From NCBI RefSeq assembly GCF_947255005.1, contig NZ_CAMYFI010000001.1:27591-91590 (forward strand): a stretch of 64,000 nt of DNA. The letters run 5' to 3'. Numbering within the stretch: the stretch's first letter is position 1; each line of letters starts with the position of its first letter. Positions 3,764 through 57,922 of this stretch are shown here, in pieces. The DNA comes from an uncultured Tessaracoccus sp. (GTDB lineage: Bacteria; Actinomycetota; Actinomycetes; Propionibacteriales; Propionibacteriaceae). Below the pieces are notes generated by a model. It saw nothing but the letters and a program-made list of their open reading frames with translations, was not told where the DNA came from and made no database searches. A program made the position numbers and the translations under genes.

Positions 3764-4655
3764 CGAACTGGTGGCGGCGGCCGACGGGTCGTCGCTCAGC
3801 AATCCGGGACCGGCCGGCTGGGCCTGGTACATCGATGACACCTGCTGGGCGGCTGGTGGCTGGGAGCGCGGCACGAACAACATGGGTGAGCTCATGGCGG
3901 TGCTGCAATTGCTGCAATCCACCGCGAACAGCCCGCGCCCACTGAAGGTGCTGTGCGACTCGCAGTACGTCATCAACTCGATCACGAAATGGATGGCAGG
4001 TTGGAAGCGTAAAGGGTGGAAGAAAGCCGACGGCAAACCCGTCCAAAACGTTGAGCTCATGAAGGCCATCGACGAGGCCATGCGAGGCCGCAGCGTGTCG
4101 TTCGAGTGGGTGAAGGGGCACGCGGGGCATCGCCTCAACGAGGCCGCCGACGCCCGAGCTCGTGCCGTTGCCGAAGCGTTCCAATCCGGCCGTCGCCCAG
4201 ACGTCGGGCCAGGCTTCGACGGCGCTCCCGCCTGCAGCTCGGAGTCGGCCTTCGAAGTTGGGCAGTGTGAGGAAGAACCCGACTTGCTCACCGTCGCGGC
4301 GGAAACGGCGCCCACGAACCGCACGCCTGGCACGGCATCGTCCAGAATCAAGGGCGAGCTGTTAGCGCTCACCAAGAAGCTCGTCTCCGACGAAGTGCGC
4401 ACCGACGAGACCAAACTGAGCAAGTTGCTGCACCCCGACGTGATCTCGCACTCGGCAGATGGACAGGTCGTCGACGCAACGTATGGCGCCTGGAAACCGC
4501 TCGATGACAAGGGCTTCGAGGTGCTCGGCATCGATCAGTACGCCGACGGCGTGGTGGGCATGCGCTGGCAGCAGCGCACCAAACTGCGATTCAACCTGTG
4601 GCAGCGCACGGGCGGCGGCTGGAAGCTGCGCTTCGCGCAGGTCACGAAGCGCTGA
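3753..4655 (+). CDS. rnhA: Ribonuclease HI with a ~150-aa C-terminal NTF2/SnoaL-like extension
   Basis: RNase HI motifs DGSSLSNPGPAGWAWYI, MGELMAVLQLL, CDSQYV and WVKGHAGHRLNEAADARA. The start at ATG 3753 overlaps the add stop. The C-terminal ~150 aa resembles NTF2-like/DUF4440 folds. Confidence 0.8.
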   Translation: MATDELVAAADGSSLSNPGPAGWAWYIDDTCWAAGGWERGTNNMGELMAVLQLLQSTANSPRPLKVLCDSQYVINSITKWMAGWKRKGWKKADGKPVQNVELMKAIDEAMRGRSVSFEWVKGHAGHRLNEAADARARAVAEAFQSGRRPDVGPGFDGAPACSSESAFEVGQCEEEPDLLTVAAETAPTNRTPGTASSRIKGELLALTKKLVSDEVRTDETKLSKLLHPDVISHSADGQVVDATYGAWKPLDDKGFEVLGIDQYADGVVGMRWQQRTKLRFNLWQRTGGGWKLRFAQVTKR

Positions 4656-4662
4656 CAGCGGC

Positions 4663-5127
4663 TCAGCGGTGCGTCCACCGCTGAGCGGCTGAGATGGGCC
4701 GAGCAGGCCCGGCGCGCGTCACGAGCGTGAGATAGACCGTCGCAACGACGGCGATCCACCCCGCCATGACGGCCGGAATCAGGAAGATCCCGGCCATGTC
4801 GGCCAGCGTGTAGTGCTCCTGCTGTTCCGGGGCACCGAGAAAGTACGTCACCTGATAGGCGACAATCCCGCCGATGATGCCGATCACGAACATCGTGATC
4901 GTCCATATTGTGCCGAAGCGCGGATCACGCTTCGGGTGCTCGAGAGAAATCAACAGCCCAGCCAACCAGATGACACCGCCGGCGATCCCTGCTCCGAGGA
5001 GATGACCTTTCGCCAGGAGCTGTTGCAGCCCCCACTCAACGCCGAACAGCAACGTGAACGCCAGGCCCACCCACACAGCGACGAGCAACACCAGCAGTCG
5101 AACGATGTGTCGCATACCTTCGAGCAT
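4663..5127 (-). CDS. Small integral membrane protein (about 4 TM helices), function unknown
   Basis: Four hydrophobic helices visible in the translation. No recognisable motif. Confidence 0.5.
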   Translation of the reverse strand: MLEGMRHIVRLLVLLVAVWVGLAFTLLFGVEWGLQQLLAKGHLLGAGIAGGVIWLAGLLISLEHPKRDPRFGTIWTITMFVIGIIGGIVAYQVTYFLGAPEQQEHYTLADMAGIFLIPAVMAGWIAVVATVYLTLVTRAGPARPISAAQRWTHR

Positions 5128-5231: not shown

Positions 5232-6098
5232 GTGAACCAGTTCCAGGAAACACTTGGCTTGCCCCTTCGCCACGCGGGAAAGGTTCGTGAGCTGTACGAC
5301 ATCCATGTCGACGGGCGCCCCTGCGTGCTGATGGTAGCCACCGACAACATCTCGGCCTTCGATCACATCCTGCCCACCCTCATCCCCAACAAAGGCGCCG
5401 TGCTGACGAAGCTCAGCTCGTGGTGGTTCAAGCAGCTCCCCGACGTTGCAAACCACCTTGTCACCGATGAGGTTCCCGACGAAGTTGCGGGCCGAGCGGT
5501 GATCGTCGAGCGCCTCGACATGGTGCCGGTCGAGTGTGTTGCCCGCGGCTACCTGACTGGATCTGGCTGGGCGGAGTACCAGGCGTCTGGCACCGTGTGC
5601 GGCATCCAGCTGCCCGACGGTCTGCGCGACGGCGACAAGCTGCCGGCCCCCATCTTCACGCCCGCGATCAAAGCCGAACTGGGTGACCACGACGAGAACG
5701 TCGACTTCGCCACCATCGCCCGTCTGCACGGGGAAGAGCTCGCCAACTCGCTGCGCGAGGCCACCTTGGACATCTATGCACGCGCAGCCGACATCGCCGC
5801 TCAGCGCGGTATCATCCTCGCCGACACGAAGCTTGAGTTCGGGCTCCGCGACGGCCAACTCGTGCTCGCCGACGAGGTGCTCACCCCGGATTCATCGCGT
5901 TTCTGGGACGCGCATGCCTGGAAGCCTGGCGCGTCGCTGCCCAACTTTGACAAGCAGTTCGTTCGTGACTGGCTGACGCACGAATCCGACTGGGACCGCG
6001 TCTCCGAGCCTCCGGCTCTGCCCGACGACGTGGTCGACGCCACGCGTGAACGCTACTTGGAGGCCTACCGGAGGATCACGGGAAGCGAGTTCGTCTGA
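5232..6098 (+). CDS. purC: Phosphoribosylaminoimidazole-succinocarboxamide synthase (SAICAR synthetase)
   Basis: GKVRELYD, VATDNISAFD and ADTKLEFG motifs. Length 288 aa. Confidence 0.9.
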   Translation: MNQFQETLGLPLRHAGKVRELYDIHVDGRPCVLMVATDNISAFDHILPTLIPNKGAVLTKLSSWWFKQLPDVANHLVTDEVPDEVAGRAVIVERLDMVPVECVARGYLTGSGWAEYQASGTVCGIQLPDGLRDGDKLPAPIFTPAIKAELGDHDENVDFATIARLHGEELANSLREATLDIYARAADIAAQRGIILADTKLEFGLRDGQLVLADEVLTPDSSRFWDAHAWKPGASLPNFDKQFVRDWLTHESDWDRVSEPPALPDDVVDATRERYLEAYRRITGSEFV

Positions 6099-7232: not shown

Positions 7233-8038
7233 TCTTTCGCAGATCCTTCCAACATGCCGTCAATGAAGTACCGCTGCAGCATCAGGAATACCATGACGAT
7301 GGGAGCGGCAATGATGAGCCCGGCGGCAGCCATGAGGGCGCCGTCGGCGGTGTATTGGCCCTTGAAGACGGACAAGCCGAGCGGGGCCGTGCGCCACTCA
7401 GCACCCGGCGACATGACCAGTGGAATCATGAACTCGTTCCACGTCCACATGAACATGAGCACCGTGACCGTGGCGATCGAGCCCGTGGCGGGAGGGATGA
7501 ACACCTTGCGCAGCGCGGTGAAGCCGTTGCAGTGGTCGAGCGCGGCGGCTTCGAGCAGGCTCGGTGGCATGGCGCGGAACTGGGCGCGCATCCAGAACGT
7601 GCCGAACGCGATGGACTGGGCAACCTGCGGCATGGCCACGGCCCAGAGCGTGTCGGTGAGCTGCATCGAGCGCAGGTCGTAGAACAGGGGGATGATGATG
7701 GCCTCGGCGGGCACCATCATGCCGAACAGGAAGAGGTAGAACAGTATCGTCGAGCCCCGGAAGCGCATGGTGCCGAAGGCGTACCCCGCCAGTATCGAAA
7801 GCACGAGCGCGACGGGCACCACGAACCCTGCGACAGCGAGCGAGCGCAGCAGCGCCGGCCCGAACGCGCCCTGGTTCCAGGCGTCCACGATGTTGTGCCA
7901 GTGGGGGCCAGGTTCTGAAACACCAAGCTGTGGCGACAGCGCCGTCAGCACGATGGTGATGATCGGGAAGATGGCGAAGAGGCTGAAGAGCGTCAAAATG
8001 ACGTAGTTGAGGGCTTTCTCACCGGCGGACACCTTCAT
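7229..8038 (-). CDS. Carbohydrate ABC transporter permease (MalG-like)
   Basis: EAA loop EAAALDHCNGFTALRKVFIPP. Six TM helices. Confidence 0.85.
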   Translation of the reverse strand: MKVSAGEKALNYVILTLFSLFAIFPIITIVLTALSPQLGVSEPGPHWHNIVDAWNQGAFGPALLRSLAVAGFVVPVALVLSILAGYAFGTMRFRGSTILFYLFLFGMMVPAEAIIIPLFYDLRSMQLTDTLWAVAMPQVAQSIAFGTFWMRAQFRAMPPSLLEAAALDHCNGFTALRKVFIPPATGSIATVTVLMFMWTWNEFMIPLVMSPGAEWRTAPLGLSVFKGQYTADGALMAAAGLIIAAPIVMVFLMLQRYFIDGMLEGSAKE

Positions 8039-8937
8039 CGCGACACCTTCTTTTCCTCGCCGATGCGGTTCACCACGATGTTGATGCAGAACACCATCAC
8101 GGTGAGGAACACAGCCACGGCCGACGCGGAACCCACCTGCTTCAGCTGGAAGGCCCGGTTGTATACCTCGTAGCTCGGCACCGTCGTCGCAGTGCCCGGC
8201 CCGCCGCTGGTGGTCATGTACACCAGATCGAAGGTCTTGAGCGCGGCAATGATGGTGAGTACGAGCGACGTGGCGATCTCCGGGCGGACCGCGGGCAGCG
8301 TGATGCCGAAGAACTCACTGATCGGCCCGGCGCCATCGATGCGGGCAGCCTCGTAGAGTTCGCCGGGGATGCGGTTCATGCCCGCCAGCAGCAGCAACAT
8401 CACGAGGCCAGTTTCGAGCCAGAATCCGATGATGCCGACGGCGGTGAGCGCAAGCTTCGGGTCACCCAGCCAGCCGATGTCTGACTGGATACCGATCCAG
8501 CCGAGCATGGAGTTGAGCGTGCCGTTGGGGGTGTAGATCTGGCGCCACGCGACGGCGACCACGACGAGCGCAATCACCTGCGGCACGAAGATGAGCACCC
8601 GGTACACACCCATCCCGCGCACGTTGCCCCGTCGAAGAATGGCAGCCAGCACCAGGCCGACGATGAGCGGCAGGATGGCGTAGAACAAGATCAGGTAGAA
8701 CGCGTGGCTGATGGCGGCGAGGAACCGCTGATCAGTCACGAGCGAGGAGTAGTTGCCGAGCCCGACGAAGGTCGCGGGGCCGAACCCGCTCCACTCATAC
8801 AGCGAGAACTGGGCGGTTCGCGCCACCGGGTAGAGCAGGAATCCTCCGTAAATGAGGAGGGCCGGGAGCAGGTACAGGTACGGCGTCCACCGCCCCCGTA
8901 CCACTGCCGACGGCCGCTCCCGACCCTTCTTCGACAT
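8035..8937 (-). CDS. Carbohydrate ABC transporter permease (MalF-like)
   Basis: EAA loop EAARIDGAGPISEFFGITLP. Multiple TM helices. Confidence 0.85.
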   Translation of the reverse strand: MSKKGRERPSAVVRGRWTPYLYLLPALLIYGGFLLYPVARTAQFSLYEWSGFGPATFVGLGNYSSLVTDQRFLAAISHAFYLILFYAILPLIVGLVLAAILRRGNVRGMGVYRVLIFVPQVIALVVVAVAWRQIYTPNGTLNSMLGWIGIQSDIGWLGDPKLALTAVGIIGFWLETGLVMLLLLAGMNRIPGELYEAARIDGAGPISEFFGITLPAVRPEIATSLVLTIIAALKTFDLVYMTTSGGPGTATTVPSYEVYNRAFQLKQVGSASAVAVFLTVMVFCINIVVNRIGEEKKVSR

Positions 8938-8940
8938 CAG

Positions 8941-10302
8941 TTACTCACCCACGAACTTCGAATAGTCATCCTGGAAAGACTGGAGTACGTCTTCAGGAGA
9001 CTTCTGTCCGCCCAGCGCCTCCTGGAGGCCCTGGCCAGCGGTGTCCGCGAAGCTCGGTGTCGCGTAATCGAGGTAGGGCAGCAGGGTGCCTTCGGAAGAA
9101 ACCTTGTCGAAGGCGACGAAGATGTCGTGCTGCACGCCCGAGTCTGGTGCGAGTTCGGCCGTGTTGTTCACCGGCATGCCGCCCTTCTCGGCGATGATCT
9201 TCATGGCCTCGTCGCTGGTGATGAAGTCGATGTAGGCCGCGGCCGCGTCGACGTTCTTCGCCTTGGCCGGAATTGCGAAGGGGATGCCGGTGCCGCCGGT
9301 GGTGGCGAGCTTGCCGTCGACCCCGGGTGGCGGAGCCATGAATCCGAGATCGTCCTTCATGGTGCCTTCCAAGTCGGTGCCCACCCAGCTACCGGCGGGC
9401 AGGAACACGCCGGTGCCCTTGCCGAAGCTCGCCCATGCCGGGTCGTAGTCGGTGCCGTTCGGTGAGGAGCCGAAGTAGCCGTCCTTCGCCCACTTGGCGA
9501 ACTGCGTCATGGCCTCTTTGTTGGCATCCGACGTCCAGTCGGCACCCGCATTGCCCATGCCGAGCTTCACGATCTCTTCCGAGGGCACGTAGTTGGCCTG
9601 CAACGGGCCGAAGACGTGGAGCGCGGGCCACTGCTCGAGGTTGCCCAGCACCATGGGCTGCTCGCCCGCTTCCTTCGCCTTGTCGAGTGCGGCGAAGTAC
9701 TCGTCCCACGTCGTCGGGGCCTCGATGCCAAGCTGCTCGAGCTTCTTCTTGGAGTAGAAGAGGCCGACGATCTCACCGGTCTGCGGCACGCCGTACAAGT
9801 TGCCTTCACCGAAGGTCTTGGCGTCGTCGGAGTAACGCACCTTGCTGAGGACAGACTCAGAGAAGCGGTCGCCCCAGCCGTAGGCCTTGGCGTACGGCTC
9901 GAGGTTGACGAGCTGGTTAGCAGCCACGTATTGGCCCATGTCGCCGCGGGCGTTGTTGACCTGCGCGACATCGGGCACGTCGTTGCCGGACAGTGCGAGC
10001 GCGATCTGCTGCTGCAGGTCGTCGTTCGACTGGCTGGTGCGCTTGATCTTGATGTTGGGATACTTCTCTTGGAAGGCCTTGTTCAGGGCCTCCAGCGCGT
10101 CGTTTTGGGAGCCACGAACTTCCTGGTCCCACACCTTCAGCTCGACATTGCCCAAACTCGCAGGATCGGTGCTGATTTCGCTGGGCGCCTTCGACGGTGT
10201 TTCGCCCGAGGCGTTGTCGCCGCTACCGGGCGCGCACGCCGAGAGCGTGCCGATTGCAAGTGCCGGGGCGAGGCCCAGCACGAGGAACTTGCGACGTCGC
10301 AT
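8941..10302 (-). CDS. Extracellular solute-binding lipoprotein of the sugar ABC transporter
   Basis: Lipoprotein signal MRRRKFLVLGLAPALAIGTLSACAPG. Family-1 SBP length (453 aa). Lies in an operon with the two permeases. Confidence 0.85.
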   Translation of the reverse strand: MRRRKFLVLGLAPALAIGTLSACAPGSGDNASGETPSKAPSEISTDPASLGNVELKVWDQEVRGSQNDALEALNKAFQEKYPNIKIKRTSQSNDDLQQQIALALSGNDVPDVAQVNNARGDMGQYVAANQLVNLEPYAKAYGWGDRFSESVLSKVRYSDDAKTFGEGNLYGVPQTGEIVGLFYSKKKLEQLGIEAPTTWDEYFAALDKAKEAGEQPMVLGNLEQWPALHVFGPLQANYVPSEEIVKLGMGNAGADWTSDANKEAMTQFAKWAKDGYFGSSPNGTDYDPAWASFGKGTGVFLPAGSWVGTDLEGTMKDDLGFMAPPPGVDGKLATTGGTGIPFAIPAKAKNVDAAAAYIDFITSDEAMKIIAEKGGMPVNNTAELAPDSGVQHDIFVAFDKVSSEGTLLPYLDYATPSFADTAGQGLQEALGGQKSPEDVLQSFQDDYSKFVGE

Positions 10303-18545: not shown

Positions 18546-18630
18546 CTGACCGGTATCCTCCACGCCTGCAACAAATCCCCGAAAACCGGGGTTCGCAAGC
18601 AACAGGTGGAGGATAACGGTCAACTTTTTC
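18546..18630. repeat. Palindromic repeat element, copy A (~80 bp). 18-bp inverted arms CTGACCGGTATCCTCCAC / GTGGAGGATAACGGTCAA with a ~42-nt spacer containing a nested CCCCGAAAACCGGGG hairpin, followed by TTTTT.
   Basis: The same element occurs at 33303-33381 and 34285-34362. The downstream T-run gives it terminator-like geometry after the 17513-18517 gene. Confidence 0.6.
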
Positions 18631-33302: not shown

Positions 33303-33420
33303 TTGACCGTTATCCTCCACGCCTGCAGAAAATCCCCGAAATGAGGGGGCCAGAAGCTTCTCGCGGAGGATAACGGTCAACTTTTCGGCCTTCCCCCGAA
33401 ATTTCCCCTGTGGAAAACGG
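33303..33420. repeat. Palindromic repeat element, copy B (arms TTGACCGTTATCCTCCAC / GCGGAGGATAACGGTCAA, spacer with CCCCGAAATGAGGGGG hairpin, then CTTTTC) plus an adjacent partial copy (CCCCCGAAATTTCCCC...GTGGAGG)
   Basis: Same family as 18546-18630 and 34285-34362. Lies immediately after the YhgE/Pip stop. Confidence 0.6.
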
Positions 33421-33453: not shown

Positions 33454-34287
33454 ATGGACTTTTTCGCAAACCAGCCCATCATCGCTGTCAGAGACCACCC
33501 GCACCTCGCCAACGCCCTGCGCTCCATGCGGCGCCGCGGCAAAGCGTGGTCGCCGCTACCTGGCGTCTACGCCCACCCCAACGTGCCCGACACGTGGGAG
33601 ACCCGCGTGCTCGCCGCGATGGCATGGGCGCCCGACCACGCTCTCGTCGGTGCCTCCGCCGCTCGCGTGACGTGGTGGGACGACCTGCCCATCGACGACA
33701 TCGAGCTGTGGGGCGCGCGTAAAGAATCTCCGGTGCCGTGGCTCACGGTGCGGCGCGCGTCGCTCGACCCCGACGTCATGATCTGGCACGACGACTACAA
33801 GGTCGCGGCCCCTGCGCTGTCGGCGGTGCAGCTGGTGAAGAGCATGGGTGGCAACGCCGTCGACGAGGCACTGCGGCGCGGCGTGGCCACCGTCGCTGAC
33901 ATGCACCTGGCACTGAGCCATGTGCCGGGGCACGCGGGAAATCGCCTTGCCAGGCGCATCTTGTGGGAATCCAGGGACGTGCCGTGGTCGGAGTTCGAGC
34001 GGCTCGCCCACACGATGCTGCGACGTGCCCGCATCACGGGTTGGAAAGCGAACGCTACCGTGCAGGTGGGCGGCATGGTCTTTCCCGCCGACCTGCTGTT
34101 CGGCGGCAGCAAGCTCGTCGCGGAGCTCGACGGCTATGAATTCCACAAAGAGCGCGCAACATTCGTGCGCGATCGAGTGAAGCAGAACCTGCTCACCCTG
34201 GCCGGATGGCAGGTGCTGCGGTTCACGTGGGAGACGATCGACGACCTCGTGCCGCAAATCCGCCAGGCGCTCAGTCAGAAGAGATGA
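33454..34287 (+). CDS. DUF559 (Vsr-like PD-(D/E)xK endonuclease-fold) domain protein with an AbiEi-like N-terminus
   Basis: C-terminal motif ELDGYEFHKERATFVRDRVKQNLLTLAGWQVLRFTWE, typical of DUF559. Flanked on both sides by the palindromic element. Confidence 0.7.
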   Translation: MDFFANQPIIAVRDHPHLANALRSMRRRGKAWSPLPGVYAHPNVPDTWETRVLAAMAWAPDHALVGASAARVTWWDDLPIDDIELWGARKESPVPWLTVRRASLDPDVMIWHDDYKVAAPALSAVQLVKSMGGNAVDEALRRGVATVADMHLALSHVPGHAGNRLARRILWESRDVPWSEFERLAHTMLRRARITGWKANATVQVGGMVFPADLLFGGSKLVAELDGYEFHKERATFVRDRVKQNLLTLAGWQVLRFTWETIDDLVPQIRQALSQKR

Positions 34288-34362
34288 CCGTTATCCTCCA
34301 CGAGGAGCGGTTGGCCCCCTAATTTCGGTAGAAATCGTCAGGTGTGGAGGATAACGGTCAAC
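34285..34362. repeat. Palindromic repeat element, copy C (spacer inverted relative to copy B); overlaps the DUF559 stop codon
   Basis: Arms TGACCGTTATCCTCCAC / GTGGAGGATAACGGTCAA. The reverse complement of the spacer (CCGAAATTAGGGGGCCAA) matches the copy B spacer (CCGAAATGAGGGGGCCAG). Confidence 0.6.
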
Positions 34363-52885: not shown

Positions 52886-53856
52886 GCTCCCCCTGGGTGG
52901 CAGACGCGCTGCTGCCCGGATACGTCTCGTGCACCATCGCGTTGCCCGACGAGAGCACCTACGCCCTCGAGCCAGCGGGTTCGCTGGTGGCCACGCTCGT
53001 CCGACGAGGTGAGCCGACGCGTAAGCGTGCGGTGCTGTACATCCACGGGTGGTCTGACTACTTCTTCCAGGCACACCTTGGGGAGGTCTTCGATGCGCTC
53101 GGCATCGACTTCTACGCCATCGACCTGCGCCGCTACGGTCGGTCGCTGCGCAACGGGCAGCTCGCCGGGTACATCCCCGATATGCGCGATTACTGGACGG
53201 AACTCGACGAGGCCGTGCAGCGTATCCGCGACGACGGCCACGACGTGATCGACCTGTGTGGGCACTCCACAGGTGGGTTGATCGCAGCGCTATACGCCGA
53301 CGAGCGCCCCGGCACGTTCTCGACGGTGCTGCTGAACTCCCCTTGGATTGAGATTCAAAGCTCGCCCGTCGTGCGGTACTCGCTGCACCCCATCATGCGC
53401 AGCTTCTCCGCACTGGCCCCCACCACGGTGCTGCCCATGGCCGACAACGGCTTCTACCTGCGCTCCATCAGTGCCGACCAGGACGGCGAGTGGGAGTTTG
53501 ACCGACATCTCAAGGGCGACGAAGCGTTTTGGATTCGTGTCGGCTGGGTGAAGGCCGTGCTCTCCGGCCAGTCGCGCGTGGAGAAGGGGCTCGACATCGA
53601 TGTCCCCATCCTGGTGCTCACATCCAGCCGCAGCGTGGGTGGCCTCGTCGGGGGCCAATGGAGCGACGACTACCATCACGCCGACGGTGTGCTCGATGTT
53701 CGCCGCATCGCCGAGCGCTCGCACTACCTCGGCAAGCACGTCACCCTGGTGCGTCTGGACGGGGCGCTCCATGACGTCGCGTTGTCGGCTGAGCCAGTGC
53801 GACGCCGCGCCTTCGACGAGCTGCGGCGCTTCCTGAGCGCGTACGGGGCCGCATGA
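52882..53856 (+). CDS. Alpha/beta hydrolase (lysophospholipase/monoacylglycerol-lipase-like)
   Basis: HGWSDYFFQ and nucleophile elbow CGHSTGG. Confidence 0.8.
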   Translation: MSSPWVADALLPGYVSCTIALPDESTYALEPAGSLVATLVRRGEPTRKRAVLYIHGWSDYFFQAHLGEVFDALGIDFYAIDLRRYGRSLRNGQLAGYIPDMRDYWTELDEAVQRIRDDGHDVIDLCGHSTGGLIAALYADERPGTFSTVLLNSPWIEIQSSPVVRYSLHPIMRSFSALAPTTVLPMADNGFYLRSISADQDGEWEFDRHLKGDEAFWIRVGWVKAVLSGQSRVEKGLDIDVPILVLTSSRSVGGLVGGQWSDDYHHADGVLDVRRIAERSHYLGKHVTLVRLDGALHDVALSAEPVRRRAFDELRRFLSAYGAA

Positions 53857-54776
53857 CGCCAGTCATCACTGGCTTCGGCATAATCGCGTTCGCGATCTTC
53901 GTCGGGTGGTTGTTGGGGCGACGGGGCATCGTCAAGCCAGAGGATCGCTTCGCGCTCAACAAGGTGGCGTTTTTTGCGGCCAGCCCCGCGCTGCTGTTCA
54001 CGGTGTTGGCGAAGGCCGATCTCGCTCAGATTTTCTCGATCTCCCTCGCGACGCACGTTGTCGGGGTGATTGTCGTGTGCGCCGGGTGCTTCGTGTTGAT
54101 GCGCGCATTGGGTACCAGCGACGTTCGTCAGCTCATGGTGGCTTCCTACTGCGGGGTGTATTCCAACGCCAATAACATCGGGCTGCCCATCGCCGTGTAC
54201 GTGATTGGCGACGGCAGCCAGGTGGCGCCGCTTCTGGTGCTGCAGATGGTTGTGCTGGCGCCGATTCTCATGGGCGTGCTCGATGCGATGGGGAAGGACG
54301 GGCTCGACCTTCGCAGGCTCCTGTTGCAGCCCGTGATCAACCCCATCGTGCTGGGTTCCGCACTGGGGATGGTGTTCTCTGCGTTTTCTCTTCCGCAACC
54401 GCAATGGCTCATGCGGCCACTCGAACTCGTCGGTGGTGCAGCGGTGCCGCTGATGCTGATCGCGTTTGGCATTTCTCTCGTCGGTCAGAAGCCGCTCCAG
54501 CCCGGCACGGGGCGTCGCGACGTGCTCATTGCCACGGTGGCGAAGACGGTGGTGCTGCCGCTCGTCGTGTACGGGCTTGGGCGTTGGGTATTTGGGCTCG
54601 ACACGCAGCACCTGTTCGCGGCGACGGTGCTCGCCGCGCTCCCGACCGCGCAGAACATGTATCAGTACGCGTTGCGCTACGAGTGCGGGGAAGTGGTTGC
54701 CCGCGACACCGTCGCAGTTACGACGGGGCTCGCCCTGCCGATCTCGCTCGTCGTTTCCATCCTGTTGCGCCCTTGA
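53853..54776 (+). CDS. AEC-family (auxin efflux carrier-like) transporter
   Basis: About 10 TM helices with typical AEC N-terminus. ATGA overlap with the upstream gene. Confidence 0.8.
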   Translation: MTPVITGFGIIAFAIFVGWLLGRRGIVKPEDRFALNKVAFFAASPALLFTVLAKADLAQIFSISLATHVVGVIVVCAGCFVLMRALGTSDVRQLMVASYCGVYSNANNIGLPIAVYVIGDGSQVAPLLVLQMVVLAPILMGVLDAMGKDGLDLRRLLLQPVINPIVLGSALGMVFSAFSLPQPQWLMRPLELVGGAAVPLMLIAFGISLVGQKPLQPGTGRRDVLIATVAKTVVLPLVVYGLGRWVFGLDTQHLFAATVLAALPTAQNMYQYALRYECGEVVARDTVAVTTGLALPISLVVSILLRP

Positions 54777-54892: not shown

Positions 54893-55375
54893 ATGCGCAA
54901 GGCCAGCAAGTTTGGCATTGCAATGCTGGGAACCGTGGTGATGGGGCTGTCGATGACCGGCTGCGGGTCCCAGAACGGGGCCTCAAGCGGCGGAGCGAAT
55001 ACGGGCAGCGACGCGAAGTCGTCAGCGCCCACAGCGTCGGCTGAGAAGCCGAAGGCTGAGGAAACTGGCAGCGAGAAGGAAGCGGAGTCGGTCGATTCCA
55101 TCGACATGATGGTCGAGAAGCTGCGGAAGAAGAACTACGCTTGCCAGGGCTGGAAGCAAACCGACGATATCGACGGCGCCGACGCGTCGGGCACGTGCAA
55201 TGGCGAAGACCAGGTCATGTGGTTTGCGGAGGCATCGAAGGTGGACGCCAAGGTCAAGGAACTCGACGACGCGGGCACCAAGTATGTCGTGGGCGAGAAC
55301 TGGATTGTCGCGAACACCGTCACCCCGACCCTCGTGCGCAACGCTCTGGGCGGCACCGCCGTCTCCGGAAAGTGA
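54893..55375 (+). CDS. Small lipoprotein, unknown function
   Basis: MRKASKFGIAMLGTVVMGLSMTGCGS lipobox. Confidence 0.5.
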   Translation: MRKASKFGIAMLGTVVMGLSMTGCGSQNGASSGGANTGSDAKSSAPTASAEKPKAEETGSEKEAESVDSIDMMVEKLRKKNYACQGWKQTDDIDGADASGTCNGEDQVMWFAEASKVDAKVKELDDAGTKYVVGENWIVANTVTPTLVRNALGGTAVSGK

Positions 55376-55387
55376 TTCGCCGGTGTT

Positions 55388-55453
55388 CGGTGGTTGAGTA
55401 GCATGCCATTGCACTCGGTGGTTGAGTAGCGAGCGGAGCTCGCGTATCGAAAC
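55388..55453. repeat. Two copies (one partial) of the ~40-bp GTTTCGATACGC-hairpin-GCTACTCAACCACCG repeat unit, reverse orientation, immediately upstream of the HNH gene
   Basis: GGTGGTTGAGTAGC at 55388-55402, and GGTGGTTGAGTAGCGAGCGGAGCTCGCGTATCGAAACC at 55417-55453. Confidence 0.5.
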
Positions 55454-55488
55454 CACAACCCCAAGAATGTTTTCGAAATAACTCCCCA

Positions 55489-55524
55489 AACCCCTTGGGT
55501 ATGGAACAGATGTTCGATATAATG
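55489..55524 (+). promoter_or_regulatory. Near-consensus sigma-70-type promoter for the HNH gene
   Basis: TTGGGT, a 17-nt spacer, then TATAAT (perfect -10). A strong RBS GGGGAGGAG precedes ATG 55544. Confidence 0.4.
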
Positions 55525-55543
55525 GGGGTGTCTCGGGGAGGAG

Positions 55544-56902
55544 ATGCCAATGGGTGATCGGGCGGCGTTATCGTTCGCGGCTATGGTGCATGCTCGGCGA
55601 TCCGCGCATGCTGCAGAGATCGCCGAGGTCGTGGCGCTACTCGAAGCCTCTGATGCCTATGAGATCGACGATGATCCGCAGCTCCCTGAACCCCTGCGCG
55701 TGAAGCGGGTGAGCTCTGGCCGTGATGGCGTGCTTGGCCCCACCGAAGCCTTTCTTCTGGAAGCTGCCGCAGCGACAGGCATGAGTTTCGGGGGAATGCG
55801 GGAGCGCACGTCGCAGGCACTCAGCGTTCGAGTTCGGCATCCTCGTGTGTGGGGGCTGTTCATCTCAGGTGGCGTCCAGTGGTGGGTAGTCCGCAACATC
55901 GAGGAGGCGTGCCAAGAGCTGTCGTTCGAGGCGGCGCTGGAGGTAGATCGCCGAGCCTCGCATTGGGTGAGCATGCACCCGGTGTGGAGCGTGCTGGATC
56001 AGCTCTCTCGGTGGGTGATGGAAGCAGATCCCGATGAAGCTAAGCGTAAAGCTGCCTTGTCGAGAAACGGCCGGTTCGTGCACGTCGGGCGTTTTGAAGA
56101 CAATCACGTCCGGCTATTCGGGCGCGTCGACGCCGCTGACGGGGTGCTCTTCGACCAAGCGTTAGACCAGATCGCCGCCTCGCTGCCAACACCCGAAGTT
56201 CCGGAGGAGCTCGAGCCCGAAGAACGGTCGTGGTTTATCCGTGGGCAGCGGCGCGCTGCTGCGTTCGGGGTGTTTGCGCGCCAAGCCATTGGTCAAGACA
56301 GCCTGATGGACGTCGAGATGGTGGTCCATGTTCCCGCTGAGCCTGCGTCAGCAGATGGCCATTCCCAGGAAGCTGGAGCGCCGCTGGGTTCTGTCGCTTA
56401 CGTTGAAGGCTGGGGCAACTTGCTCACCGCCACGATGCCTGAGTTCTTGAAGGGCGCGAACGTCACGGTTCGGCCAGTCCTTGATCCGAATATGATCCCC
56501 AGCCCTGGGGGGAAAGAACCCACCGCTGATCAACGACGAGCCCTCATGGTGAGGAACCCCCGTTCGGTGTTCCCGTTTGCGACCACGAAGGTAAAGGACT
56601 GCGACGTCGACCACACGGTGAGCTTCTGTCTAACTGGCGGAGGCGGGGCCACGTCGATGGCGAATATGGGCCCGCTTGATCGAAGGGCACACCGAGCGAA
56701 GACAGCCGGCTACTGGCGGCTCGCTCAGCCCGAGCCAGGGGTGTTCCATTGGATCTCGCCGCTGGGGTATGAATACCAGGTCACCGGGCAAGGCACCGTT
56801 ATGACGCGCTTGCCCGACGTGCCCGTTGCGCCCATCGCAGAAGTGCCGCCTCAACCCCCTCCCGAATACGAGCCACCTCCCGACTACGCACGAGCTGCGT
56901 AG
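55544..56902 (+). CDS. DUF222-family HNH endonuclease domain protein (REP13E12-like repeat-element protein)
   Basis: C-terminal HNH region KDCDVDHTVSF...GATSMANMGPLDRRAHRAKT, characteristic of the actinobacterial DUF222/13E12 family. Flanked by repeats on both sides. Confidence 0.8.
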   Translation: MPMGDRAALSFAAMVHARRSAHAAEIAEVVALLEASDAYEIDDDPQLPEPLRVKRVSSGRDGVLGPTEAFLLEAAAATGMSFGGMRERTSQALSVRVRHPRVWGLFISGGVQWWVVRNIEEACQELSFEAALEVDRRASHWVSMHPVWSVLDQLSRWVMEADPDEAKRKAALSRNGRFVHVGRFEDNHVRLFGRVDAADGVLFDQALDQIAASLPTPEVPEELEPEERSWFIRGQRRAAAFGVFARQAIGQDSLMDVEMVVHVPAEPASADGHSQEAGAPLGSVAYVEGWGNLLTATMPEFLKGANVTVRPVLDPNMIPSPGGKEPTADQRRALMVRNPRSVFPFATTKVKDCDVDHTVSFCLTGGGGATSMANMGPLDRRAHRAKTAGYWRLAQPEPGVFHWISPLGYEYQVTGQGTVMTRLPDVPVAPIAEVPPQPPPEYEPPPDYARAA

Positions 56903-57822
56903 TTCTACCCGACGATGGCCCTGTCGCCCCGTATACCGTCCTGGTTGCGGGGTAGCAGGGGATATTTGAGGTGAGGGCGTGGTTTCGATACGCGGCCTGC
57001 GGCCGCTACTCAACCACCGAAGGCTCCGATCATCGAGTAGGCGGCGTAGCCGCCGTTTCGAGGCGTATCGGCCGCCAATACTCAGCCCCGCCGGCATAAG
57101 GAATGAGGGATTCCACCGAAAACGGTGGAATCCCTCATTCCTTATCGCCAACGCCATCACTCAAGTTCGTCTTGATGCGCCGGATCCGGCGGCTACTGAA
57201 TTGTTGAGCGGGCAGCGTCGCCCTATCGTCGAGTAGTGCAGTCGGCGTGGGGAGGGGCGAGCACTCCTATAGTTGGCGGTGTGGTGAGAGCCGAGTGCGG
57301 GCTCCCAGGCCTACCTAGGAAATGCTCGTCAACTCTGAGGAACTGGCCGTAGCACGGTCGTTGCCTGATGTCTCCTTGAGCTGGAAGCACTTGGCGGCTG
57401 GTGCGGAGGCACTGCTCTTCGATGACGTGGCTGAGGAACTGTGGGAGGATCGGGCCTAGCCCCATCCCGGCCATCTAGCAGGTGACGTAGCCGCCGTATC
57501 GAGGCGCACCGAGTGAGAAACTTCAAAATCCGTACGCAGATTCGCTTACTCCCCTAAAACCGGAGGGTTTGGTCAATCTGCGTACGGATATTGAAGTTTG
57601 GCGCTGGGTTTCGATACACAGACTTCGCCTGCCGCTCAACCACCGGGGGCGCTTGTCTCGATGATTGAGTAGCGGCCGCAGGCCGCGTATCGACATCATC
57701 CCGGGCGTGTTTTCGATACGCCCGCTCCGCGGACTACTCAACCACCGAAAGGGGAAGAACACCCGACCATCGGGTAGCGCCGCAGGCGCCTATCGAGATG
57801 CAGTAAGGAAGGGAGAACGAAC
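56903..57822. repeat. 0.9-kb non-coding mosaic of at least three repeat families and two very long perfect hairpins
   Basis: 40-bp unit copies at 56981-57023 (forward), 57606-57649 (forward, degenerate), 57655-57695 (reverse) and 57709-57753 (forward). Sub-repeat GTAGCCGCCGT(A/T)TCGAGGCG at 57042-57062 and 57487-57506. A 23-bp perfect-stem hairpin with AAAA loop at 57096-57145. A ~24-bp-stem hairpin at 57519-57598. Confidence 0.6.
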
Positions 57823-57899
57823 TGGTGGCCAGGGCCGGGGTCGAACCGGCGACCTTTCACTTTTCAGGCGAACGCTGCTACCAACTGAGCTACCTGGCC
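57823..57899 (-). tRNA. tRNA-Phe (GAA), CCA encoded
   Basis: Cloverleaf GGCCAGG acceptor, GTTCGACC T-loop, anticodon loop CTGAAAA. Confidence 0.8.
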
Positions 57900-57922
57900 G
57901 TGCGGCCTGAATTCAGACCTAG

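Follow-up and report, generated by a model that had tools for sequence, protein, structure and literature searches.

Repetitive extragenic palindromes (REPs) are normally species-specific and are thought to be tied to RAYT transposases, mostly in Proteobacteria. Within the GTAG superfamily, a REP is recognized by a GTAG or GTGG tag lying 0-2 nt 5' of a stem-loop (PMC6006769, PMC3733652). GTAG-tagged REPs preferentially form head-to-head dimers (PMC3733652), and their mosaics are known as bacterial interspersed mosaic elements (BIMEs; defined in PMC2817692). A 2013 survey reported no GTAG REPs in Actinobacteria or Spirochaetes (Di Nocera, PMC3733652). Here, we analyze a 64,000-nucleotide stretch from an uncultured Tessaracoccus sp. 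(contig NZ_CAMYFI010000001.1; hereafter the window), in which a mosaic of hairpin repeats (56903-57822) fills the gap between a DUF222-HNH (REP13E12-type) gene and a convergent tRNA-Glu/Asp/Phe operon. With moderate confidence, we interpret this interval as a BIME-like mosaic of a REP-type repeat, with the HNH element lodged in one of its dimers.

An earlier sequence-only reading of the window had described the repeats, palindromes and long hairpins of the interval, and these are all in place and far above chance. The outer helix, the invariant internal loop, the strand asymmetry and the cross-phylum distribution described below go beyond that reading.

Structure and covariation of the unit

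The repeat unit is a two-helix hairpin of 41-55 nt, GGTGGTT-GAGTAG-[P2]-CGTATCGA-AACCACC. Its outer helix (P1) is GGTGGTT/AACCACC or a covarying variant, and its inner hairpin (P2, approximately 8-26 nt) is free in sequence and length but always paired. Between the two lies an invariant, asymmetric internal loop, 5'-GAGTAG...CGTATCGA-3', with GTAG directly 5' of the inner stem (0 nt). From P1, the fold continues through a 2-bp GA/UC step that has a GA bulge and then a symmetric GUA/GUA loop, and ends in P2.

Scanning one genome per species for the pattern TCGATAC-N8-24-CTACTCAACCACC yielded at least 119 stretches. Among these stretches, 146 exact matches are listed against about 18 expected by our own estimate, and all 146 listed matches carry two features that the pattern did not impose, an upstream GGTGGTT and a self-complementary center. 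In the window, the same pattern occurs at 56985-57011 (+), 57667-57693 (-), 57713-57739 (+) and 55424-55450 (-), four matches where 0.04 are expected, in keeping with the unit that the sequence-only reading had recognized. Likewise, CTACTCAACCACCGA with up to three mismatches has seven matches in the window (1.3 expected), six of which fall within 55.38-57.75 kb.

We examined covariation in 112 aligned units from other genomes, with the window left out. Each of the four basal variable inner-stem pairs shows 38-55 double changes; inner-stem cells are paired in 87% of cases versus 34-52% for slid partners, and covariation as high as that observed arises in 0/500 shuffles. The proposal that central palindromes vary between copies while staying paired is thus borne out well beyond the window, and the stem differences remain compensatory once many copies are aligned. 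Inner stems also differ among copies of a single genome (the JBARBA01 loci, the OH_PFB_125 loci and the window), with flanks and loop conserved. The outer helix varies in the same paired manner: GGTT/AACC (174 counts), GGTC/GACC (27), CATC/GATG (12), GATT/AATC (6) and CGTC/GACG (3), with GTTGGTT/AACCAAC, GCTGGTT/AACCAGC and GCCGGTT/AACCGGC in phage contigs. Because P1 and P2 both covary, the invariant part of the unit is the internal loop. Its 14-nt core and the base of the outer helix (GGTT/AACC or a covarying pair) are kept across three phyla and phage contigs; a loop core that persists across phyla while both helices covary points to a conserved partner. GAGTAG abuts the inner stem in 112/112 aligned units, where the search pattern imposed it, and also in bystander and window copies, where it was not imposed. 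GAGTG and GAGCAG were seen as tag variants.

A covariance model of 49 positions (R1) was built from the 112 units, again excluding the window. It recovers five copies in the window (E 7e-12 to 4e-5) and no other match at E<=0.01, and since the model had no access to the window, these copies independently support the unit. A further two to three degenerate copies carry an exchanged outer helix. Rfam 15 returns only tRNAs at gathering score, and no unit across 55300-57900 has a match to any Rfam family at E<=10. Searching the literature by sequence strings and by REP-plus-taxon terms gave no description of the unit; the strings matched unrelated primers only. The unit therefore represents a family, absent from Rfam and from the literature searched, with a conserved internal loop and two covarying helices. 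R1 would allow annotation of such units, which break assemblies and sit in tRNA-adjacent variable regions.

Distribution and genomic organization

The family is intergenic and patchily distributed across phyla. Its cultured carriers include Treponema bryantii, Gordonia sinesedis, G. namibiensis, Aeromicrobium, Microbacterium telephonicum and Agromyces albus; further carriers include dozens of Anaerolineae and Chloroflexota metagenome-assembled genomes (MAGs). IMG/VR adds 43 contigs with 54 model-confirmed units, while a BLAST search with a unit pair found no match in GenBank phages or PLSDB plasmids. The suspicion that the repeats belong to a dispersed, REP-type family rather than to unique sequence is supported by recurrence of the core in many other genomes. 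Among the stretches scanned, several MAGs and isolates harbor many loci per genome, and a 16-kb part of T. bryantii holds as many as 11 units; the window contains one cluster.

Neighboring units are predominantly head-to-head (convergent, GTAG outward), with a core distance of 14-58 nt in 48 of the 54 convergent cases. Anaerolineae units are nearly always head-to-head dimers; tandem 40-nt arrays and nested units also occur. In nested units of Chloroflexota (L015 6665-6743, L084 1430-1506, L105 2909-2985, L048 6640-6717 and L027 774-856), a complete unit occupies the inner-hairpin loop of another, and the inner unit is inverted relative to the outer one in 5/5. It is the GTAG side that adjoins genes: the GAGTAG strand has gene stops upstream of it in 57 cases versus 17, and the non-GAGTAG strand has gene starts downstream in 29 versus 3. 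The IMG/VR units (L139-L181) are singletons in short gaps between co-directional genes.

No gene family common to the pattern loci emerged among the best 25 open reading frame (ORF) clusters of the at least 119 loci, clusters that were not Pfam-scanned, and no autonomous element was found between distant facing units. Facing dimers resemble terminal inverted repeats with a short core, and target duplication is not evident by eye. The only candidate for a "full-length" parent of a miniature inverted-repeat transposable element is the DUF222 element discussed below. A tblastn search with E. coli RayT and the Y1 protein of stretch L068, covering the window and L001-L181 (approximately 1.4 Mb), identified a RAYT/Y1 gene only in L068. 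This 192-aa RAYT-like ORF (4207-4785, - strand) has HUH (NHFHAL) and Y (VVYIHQNP) motifs and no Pfam match at E<=0.01. Around it lie four copies of a palindrome of its own, AGACCTGTCAGGTCT, which is unrelated to the unit.

Strand asymmetry

Mismatches inside P2 are distributed unevenly, with 80 G.A versus 1 C.T. In Actinobacteria and Treponema, P2 is capped by GAA, GCA, GGA or GTA triloops closed by C-G (n=47) and never, on the GAGTAG strand, by TNC. DNA mini-hairpins of very high stability are typified by C(GNA)G triloops and sheared G.A pairs; RNA elements are usually capped by GNRA or UNCG tetraloops. Orientation is uniform within each phage contig, with the GAGTAG strand antisense to the genes, and in 24/37 units versus 3 the next ribosome-binding site follows 5-25 nt downstream of the non-GAGTAG strand. 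Based on the G.A bias, the GNA caps and the antisense GAGTAG strand of phage contigs, we favor a DNA-level, strand-specific structure; selection would then have filtered the operon orientation of units. The inner loops of phage-contig units are 7-nt and T-rich on the GAGTAG strand and differ from the GNA triloops of Actinobacteria and Treponema. Apparent "wobble" changes on the 3' strand of the outer helix were set aside, since both the search pattern and transition bias confound them.

The same data bear on whether the unit is instead a structured RNA, such as an intercistronic processing, stability or termination element or a self-cleaving motif, with a factor-bound or catalytic loop. Two covarying helices around an invariant loop are the usual signature of a functional RNA, and the shared orientation of phage units in short co-directional gaps, just ahead of ribosome-binding sites, is in line with such a role. 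We nonetheless consider an RNA rather unlikely. Both orientations are represented among units, which form dimers as well as nested, tandem and mosaic clusters; the units have no associated gene family among the best 25 ORF clusters, no Rfam match even at the relaxed threshold, and are missing at orthologous sites in relatives. Furthermore, they are capped by GNA triloops, not by GNRA or UNCG tetraloops, and phage genes are antisense to the strand that bears the purine mismatches and the GNA loops. Nothing points to the small-RNA gene or the phage attachment site that the sequence-only reading had also entertained.

The antisense position of the structured strand, together with same-orientation phage units between genes, also recalls folded single-strand recombination sites that mark gene cassettes, either of the integron attC kind or another tyrosine-recombinase site. 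Like attC, the unit is a structure-defined hairpin whose structure is conserved while its terminal stem varies in sequence, with conserved paired boxes at its base; by direct reading, GTTGAGT/ACTCAAC fits GTTRRRY/RYYYAAC. Unlike attC, each unit has a single box, and the GTT...AAC order in the stem is the reverse of that in attC, which largely refutes this identity. Dimers, nested copies and 40-nt arrays in tandem do not look like cassettes, the unit shows no integrase or cassette logic, and no integrase-type cluster is present among the best 25 (not Pfam-scanned) ORF clusters of the at least 119 loci. A recombination site of this kind is extremely improbable.

Other identities were rejected. 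The repeats are not a CRISPR array, as the sequence-only reading had already argued from their mixed orientations and irregular spacing. Compared by eye, none of kink-turn, sarcin-ricin loop, hammerhead core, sigma-70 promoter geometry, ops/JUMPStart, L5 stoperator, dif/Xer or tRNA-like minihelix fits.

Relationship to REPs, BIMEs and REPINs

We regard the unit as REP-like because GTAG lies 0 nt 5' of the stem, dimers are common, two unit types alternate, arrays occur and no gene family is shared. As in the GTAG REPs and BIMEs of E. coli, Pseudomonas and other bacteria (PMC3733652, PMC2817692), the tag directly precedes a GC-rich stem-loop; units are intergenic and multi-copy, prefer head-to-head arrangement, and form mosaics in which two alternating types are combined with other motifs. 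Similarly, the inverted dimer is the apparent replicative unit, as in REPINs and RAYT REPtrons (Bertels and Rainey 2011, PMC3116915; Ton-Hoang 2012, PMC3333891), with a nuclease gene between facing repeats and a strand-specific hairpin that bears a GTAG tag. Unlike REPtrons, no Y1/HUH gene is associated and the gene between the repeats is a multi-copy DUF222-HNH; unlike REPINs, the copies are not near-identical to one another.

Several observations weigh against a REP-type identity. Classical REP families have a constant stem sequence, whereas here the inner stem differs between copies of one genome, and the conserved part is instead an internal loop inside a second, outer helix. A near-identical core shared by three phyla and phage contigs is unusual for REPs. 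No RAYT/Y1 gene accompanies the units, and the sole Y1-like gene in approximately 1.8 Mb (L068) has its own, unrelated palindromes. A single-stranded form receives no support from wobble pairs: a first strand test based on minimum-free-energy folds seemed significant but was withdrawn as a folding artefact, the symmetric recount giving G.T 22 versus A.C 19. Finally, the strong orientation bias in phage contigs could mean an RNA role.

Under the REP-type interpretation, the GAGTAG...CGTATCGA strand of the unit would act in folded, single-stranded form, most likely as DNA, and a trans-acting nuclease or transposase may recognize it through the conserved loop. Copies would spread as single units or head-to-head dimers, and clusters would then grow by local duplication and inversion. 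Pairing of the inner stem may be kept by structural selection, by template switching in quasi-palindromes or by conversion between copies. The DUF222-HNH element would have landed in the spacer of one head-to-head dimer and, in this lineage, probably prefers unit junctions.

The DUF222-HNH element

The ORF upstream of the mosaic (55544-56902) belongs to Pfam PF02720 (E 1e-18; homologue set P0001-P0036). A D-H...N...H motif (CDVDH...ANMGPLDRRAHRAK) can be read in its DUF222 translation, and H383, R384 and K386 are invariant in the alignment. The element fills the spacer between the facing units U1 and U2 (Table 1), with its leader within a few nucleotides of U1 and its 3' hairpin approximately 30 nt before U2; apart from the 1.5 kb that lies between them, the two units are placed like those of an empty head-to-head dimer, for example U6-U7. 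Ordinary genes adjoin the other (GTAG) side of units. Its DNA similarity to a copy elsewhere (L125) is limited to 55574-56901.

A link between the repeats and the adjacent HNH element, one of the suggestions of the sequence-only reading, proved to be real. Facing units flank the HNH gene in the window, in L120/L187 and in L137; the last is a different context, with the variant unit CGTC-GAGTG-[P2]-TGTATCGA-GACG arranged -> -> gene <-. Overall, in 11/17 DUF222 contexts, 27-43 nt separate the element's 3' hairpin from the start of a unit, and other copies share both the 3' hairpin and the unit spacing with the window element. In one assembly with at least 10 DUF222 copies, the spacing is 27 nt (five copies) or 41 nt (two copies), and the L137 copy, from a different genome, likewise has its unit 41 nt after the hairpin. 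In assembly ERZ1035050 (L189-L195, L209, L211, L215), at least 10 contigs end inside the DUF222 gene, which marks it as multi-copy and assembly-breaking; the 3' hairpin CCCCGY..RCGGGG is common to these copies, and in some of them the downstream mosaic is also shared over more than 250 nt.

These arrangements would be expected if the units were termini or non-autonomous partners of the DUF222-HNH element, whose protein would spread dimers (internally deleted copies) as RAYT does REPINs. In addition to the gene inside facing pairs with empty-dimer geometry and the fixed 27- or 41-nt spacing in one multi-copy genome, weak unit-like hairpins lie approximately 130-190 nt upstream of DUF222 genes at distant loci, in the same orientation, in 4/5 model matches (rough p ~0.01). 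Against such a partnership, there is no DUF222 homologue in the at least 119 pattern loci, the 43 viral loci or the viral collection; the Treponema and Anaerolineae loci, in which the unit family abounds, show no DUF222 gene; and three other DUF222 contexts have no unit nearby. Moreover, a unit may stand beside the element's 3' end in either orientation, and DUF222 is multi-copy like an insertion sequence, not single-copy like RAYT. A partnership of this kind is unlikely. Based on the three DUF222 contexts without a unit and the pattern and viral loci without DUF222, we read the HNH gene as part of a putative separate selfish element that would target the repeats and prefer unit junctions.

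Such behavior resembles that of REP-targeting insertion sequences (IS1397, ISPpu9/10; Tobes and Pareja 2006, PMC1525189; PMC12288879), selfish elements found repeatedly at fixed positions by palindromic repeats; unlike these, the element here encodes an HNH/DUF222 protein rather than a DDE or DEDD transposase. REP13E12 of Mycobacterium tuberculosis (Gordon 1999, as cited in PMC10589994) belongs to the same family, PF02720, which is multi-copy in a related assembly; despite its name, REP13E12 is not a REP hairpin but a gene-bearing repeat of 1.4 kb. The literature searched held no published link between REP13E12 and hairpin repeats.

DUF222-HNH proteins are abundant in Actinobacteria, including M. 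tuberculosis, and the unit offers a concrete, testable substrate for them. A tentative possibility, clearly short of an expectation, is that the conserved loop is the recognition structure of an undescribed mobile system. Either the DUF222-HNH protein would target or mobilize the hairpins, or an enzyme common to Actinobacteria, Chloroflexota, Spirochaetes and phages would copy a structure-defined hairpin with a freely varying inner stem. The former would provide the first mechanism for the REP13E12 family; we know of no established mechanism for these proteins.

Distant DUF222 loci from a soil metagenome (L234, L252, L254, L261 and L265; 28-30% identity) have upstream GGTGGTY-GAG...TCGA-RACCACC hairpins with other loop sequences, 133-190 nt upstream in four loci and approximately 600 nt upstream in L261. 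L254 carries a tandem array of the minimal form TGATCGAGCCCGTCGAGATCA. A scan of DUF222 loci for the generic "GAG...TCGA" skeleton was too insensitive to use.

Evolution of the locus among relatives

The sequence-only reading had called for a comparison with relatives, and the interval is indeed rearranged in close ones and missing from more distant ones. At the orthologous site in Tessaracoccus oleiagri, 205 nt separate the upstream gene from tRNA-Phe and contain two plain hairpins and no unit; a relative with 80% identity has approximately 1 kb of unrelated sequence there, also without a unit. The variable gap occupies 8525-9554 in relative L183 and 8534-8739 in L185. In the syntenic relative L120 (93% protein and 87% DNA identity), facing units are arranged as in the window, and the gap next to tRNA-Phe measures 3.5 kb compared with 2.4 kb in the window. 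Upstream of its HNH gene (5476-5863), L120 carries the downstream mosaic a second time, in inverted form; it also has a 740-nt insertion in the mosaic (7796-8537), with a 187-aa ORF, that is missing from the window.

Orthologous units keep their flanks and change P2 in a paired manner (CGAGC/GCTCG versus CGCCC/GGGCG; CGGCC/GGCCG versus GCCGCC/GGCGGC). Template switching in quasi-palindromes and conversion between copies are established mechanisms. Rapid, always-compensated change of P2 fits structural selection and fits either of these mechanisms equally well. The covariation noted in the sequence-only reading therefore stands; its conclusion that covariation implies selection for a hairpin does not, as both mechanisms would also preserve pairing.

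Variation of the site among relatives, and the block duplication and inversion of mosaic in L120, could suggest that the repeats are only a local product of duplication and inversion at a variable site beside tRNA genes and have no function as a family. For the unit, this is refuted by the hundreds of copies of the core, found in three phyla and in phage contigs, that are clearly under structural constraint, and as an overall account it is very unlikely; it does hold for how the window cluster grew.

Gene context and features of the window

The high-GC window carries, in order, a transporter gene (53853-54776; product 100% identical to P0037 from an uncultured Tessaracoccus), a 174-aa ORF (end 55375), the DUF222 ORF and tRNA-Phe/Asp/Glu (- strand, from 57823). 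An exact-protein look-up of three window proteins gave no record. ORFs in the interval have no Pfam match, consistent with the claim that it holds no credible coding sequence, and no intrinsic terminators are predicted inside the mosaic. Features are listed in Table 1.

Table 1. Repeat units, palindromic modules and flanking features of the variable region (window coordinates).
Feature	Position	Strand	Description
Orphan 5' unit half	55386..55402	+	TTCGGTGGTTGAGTAGC; 3' half missing; exact match to CTACTCAACCACCGA on - strand
U1, type 1	55415..55459	+	GGTGGTT-GAGTAG-[CGAGC GGA GCTCG]-CGTATCGA-AACCAC; R1 60.5 bits, E 6.9e-12
DUF222-HNH element	55460..56975	+	85-nt leader with TATAAT-like box; ORF 55544-56902; 3' hairpin CCCCGT..GCGGGG
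U2, type 1	56976..57020	-	Inner stem CGGCC GCA GGCCG; faces U1 across HNH element; R1 60.1 bits, E 8.4e-12
Degenerate type-2 unit	57026..57072	+	GATCATC-GAGTAG-[GCGGC GTA GCCGC]-CGTTTCGA-GGCG; R1 partial 57035-57061, 17.5 bits, E 0.05
Perfect 23-bp hairpin module	57096..57145		AAAA loop; -30.7 kcal/mol, z = -13; conserved in L120-L124
Orphan 5' half of type-2 unit	57222..57236	+	CCTATCGTCGAGTAG; 87% to 57026-57040
Degenerate type-2 unit	57467..57513	+	CCATCTAGCAG-[GTGAC GTA GCCGC]-CGTATCGA-GGCG; 80% to 57026-57070
~80-nt palindromic module	57518..57599		Arms AAACTTCAAAATCCGTACGCAGAT, mini-hairpin center; z = -7.5 and -7.2 (two strands)
U5, degenerate type 1	57602..57646	-	GAGCGG for GAGTAG; R1 31.3 bits, E 3.5e-5
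U6	57658..57702	+	Outer helix GATGAT/ATCATC, two compensated positions versus GGTGGT/ACCACC; R1 37 bits, E 1.8e-6
U7, type 1	57704..57748	-	Head-to-head dimer with U6, spacer few nt; R1 47.5 bits, E 6.5e-9
U8', type 2	57763..57805	+	CCATC-GGGTAG-[CGCC GCA GGCG]-CCTATCGA-GATG; outer helix CATC/GATG; R1 weak, 7.9 bits
tRNA-Phe	57823..57899	-	Right-hand boundary of variable region (context)

The 3' side of U1 is towards the HNH element, and its DNA fold gives P1, internal loop and P2. The second unit type (57026, 57467 and 57763) has the CATC/GATG outer helix and the same loop as type 1 (GGTT/AACC). The two types alternate at 56976/57026, 57704/57763 and L120 8751/8808, with two other palindromic modules interspersed. 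The type-2 unit at 57026 is 97% identical over 32 nt to L120 8570-8601, and U8' is 91% identical over 46 nt to L120 5779-5734. A sub-repeat that the sequence-only reading found twice corresponds to 45-nt copies at 57026-57070 and 57467-57511 (80% identity), which are degenerate second-type units.

The perfect hairpin with an AAAA loop is present as described and is a dispersed module: it recurs with 96% identity at L029 2317-2362, in another Actinomycetes MAG, approximately 20 nt from a unit. The second long hairpin was likewise found, with 35-nt arms (57508-57542/57575-57609) that are 86% complementary (z = -7.5). The sequence 57467-57598 is 77% identical to L120 5646-5515, and L120 has two copies of the 80-nt palindromic module (5515-5595 and 8616-8698).

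The CCCCGAAAACCGGGG core, by contrast, is less widely shared than proposed: its sole exact copy in the window is at 18577, and the second long hairpin matches it with two mismatches. The sites at 33303 and 34285 do share 17-nt arms, but their cores are other than CCCCGAAAACCGGGG. Together with 18546, they form a second palindromic family (18546-18621, 33303-33380 and 34285-34360) with approximately 17-nt arms, TGACCGTTATCCTCCAC/GTGGAGGATAACGGTCA, and a variable mini-hairpin center of 40-45 nt. Its architecture is that of the 57518-57599 module, with different arms.

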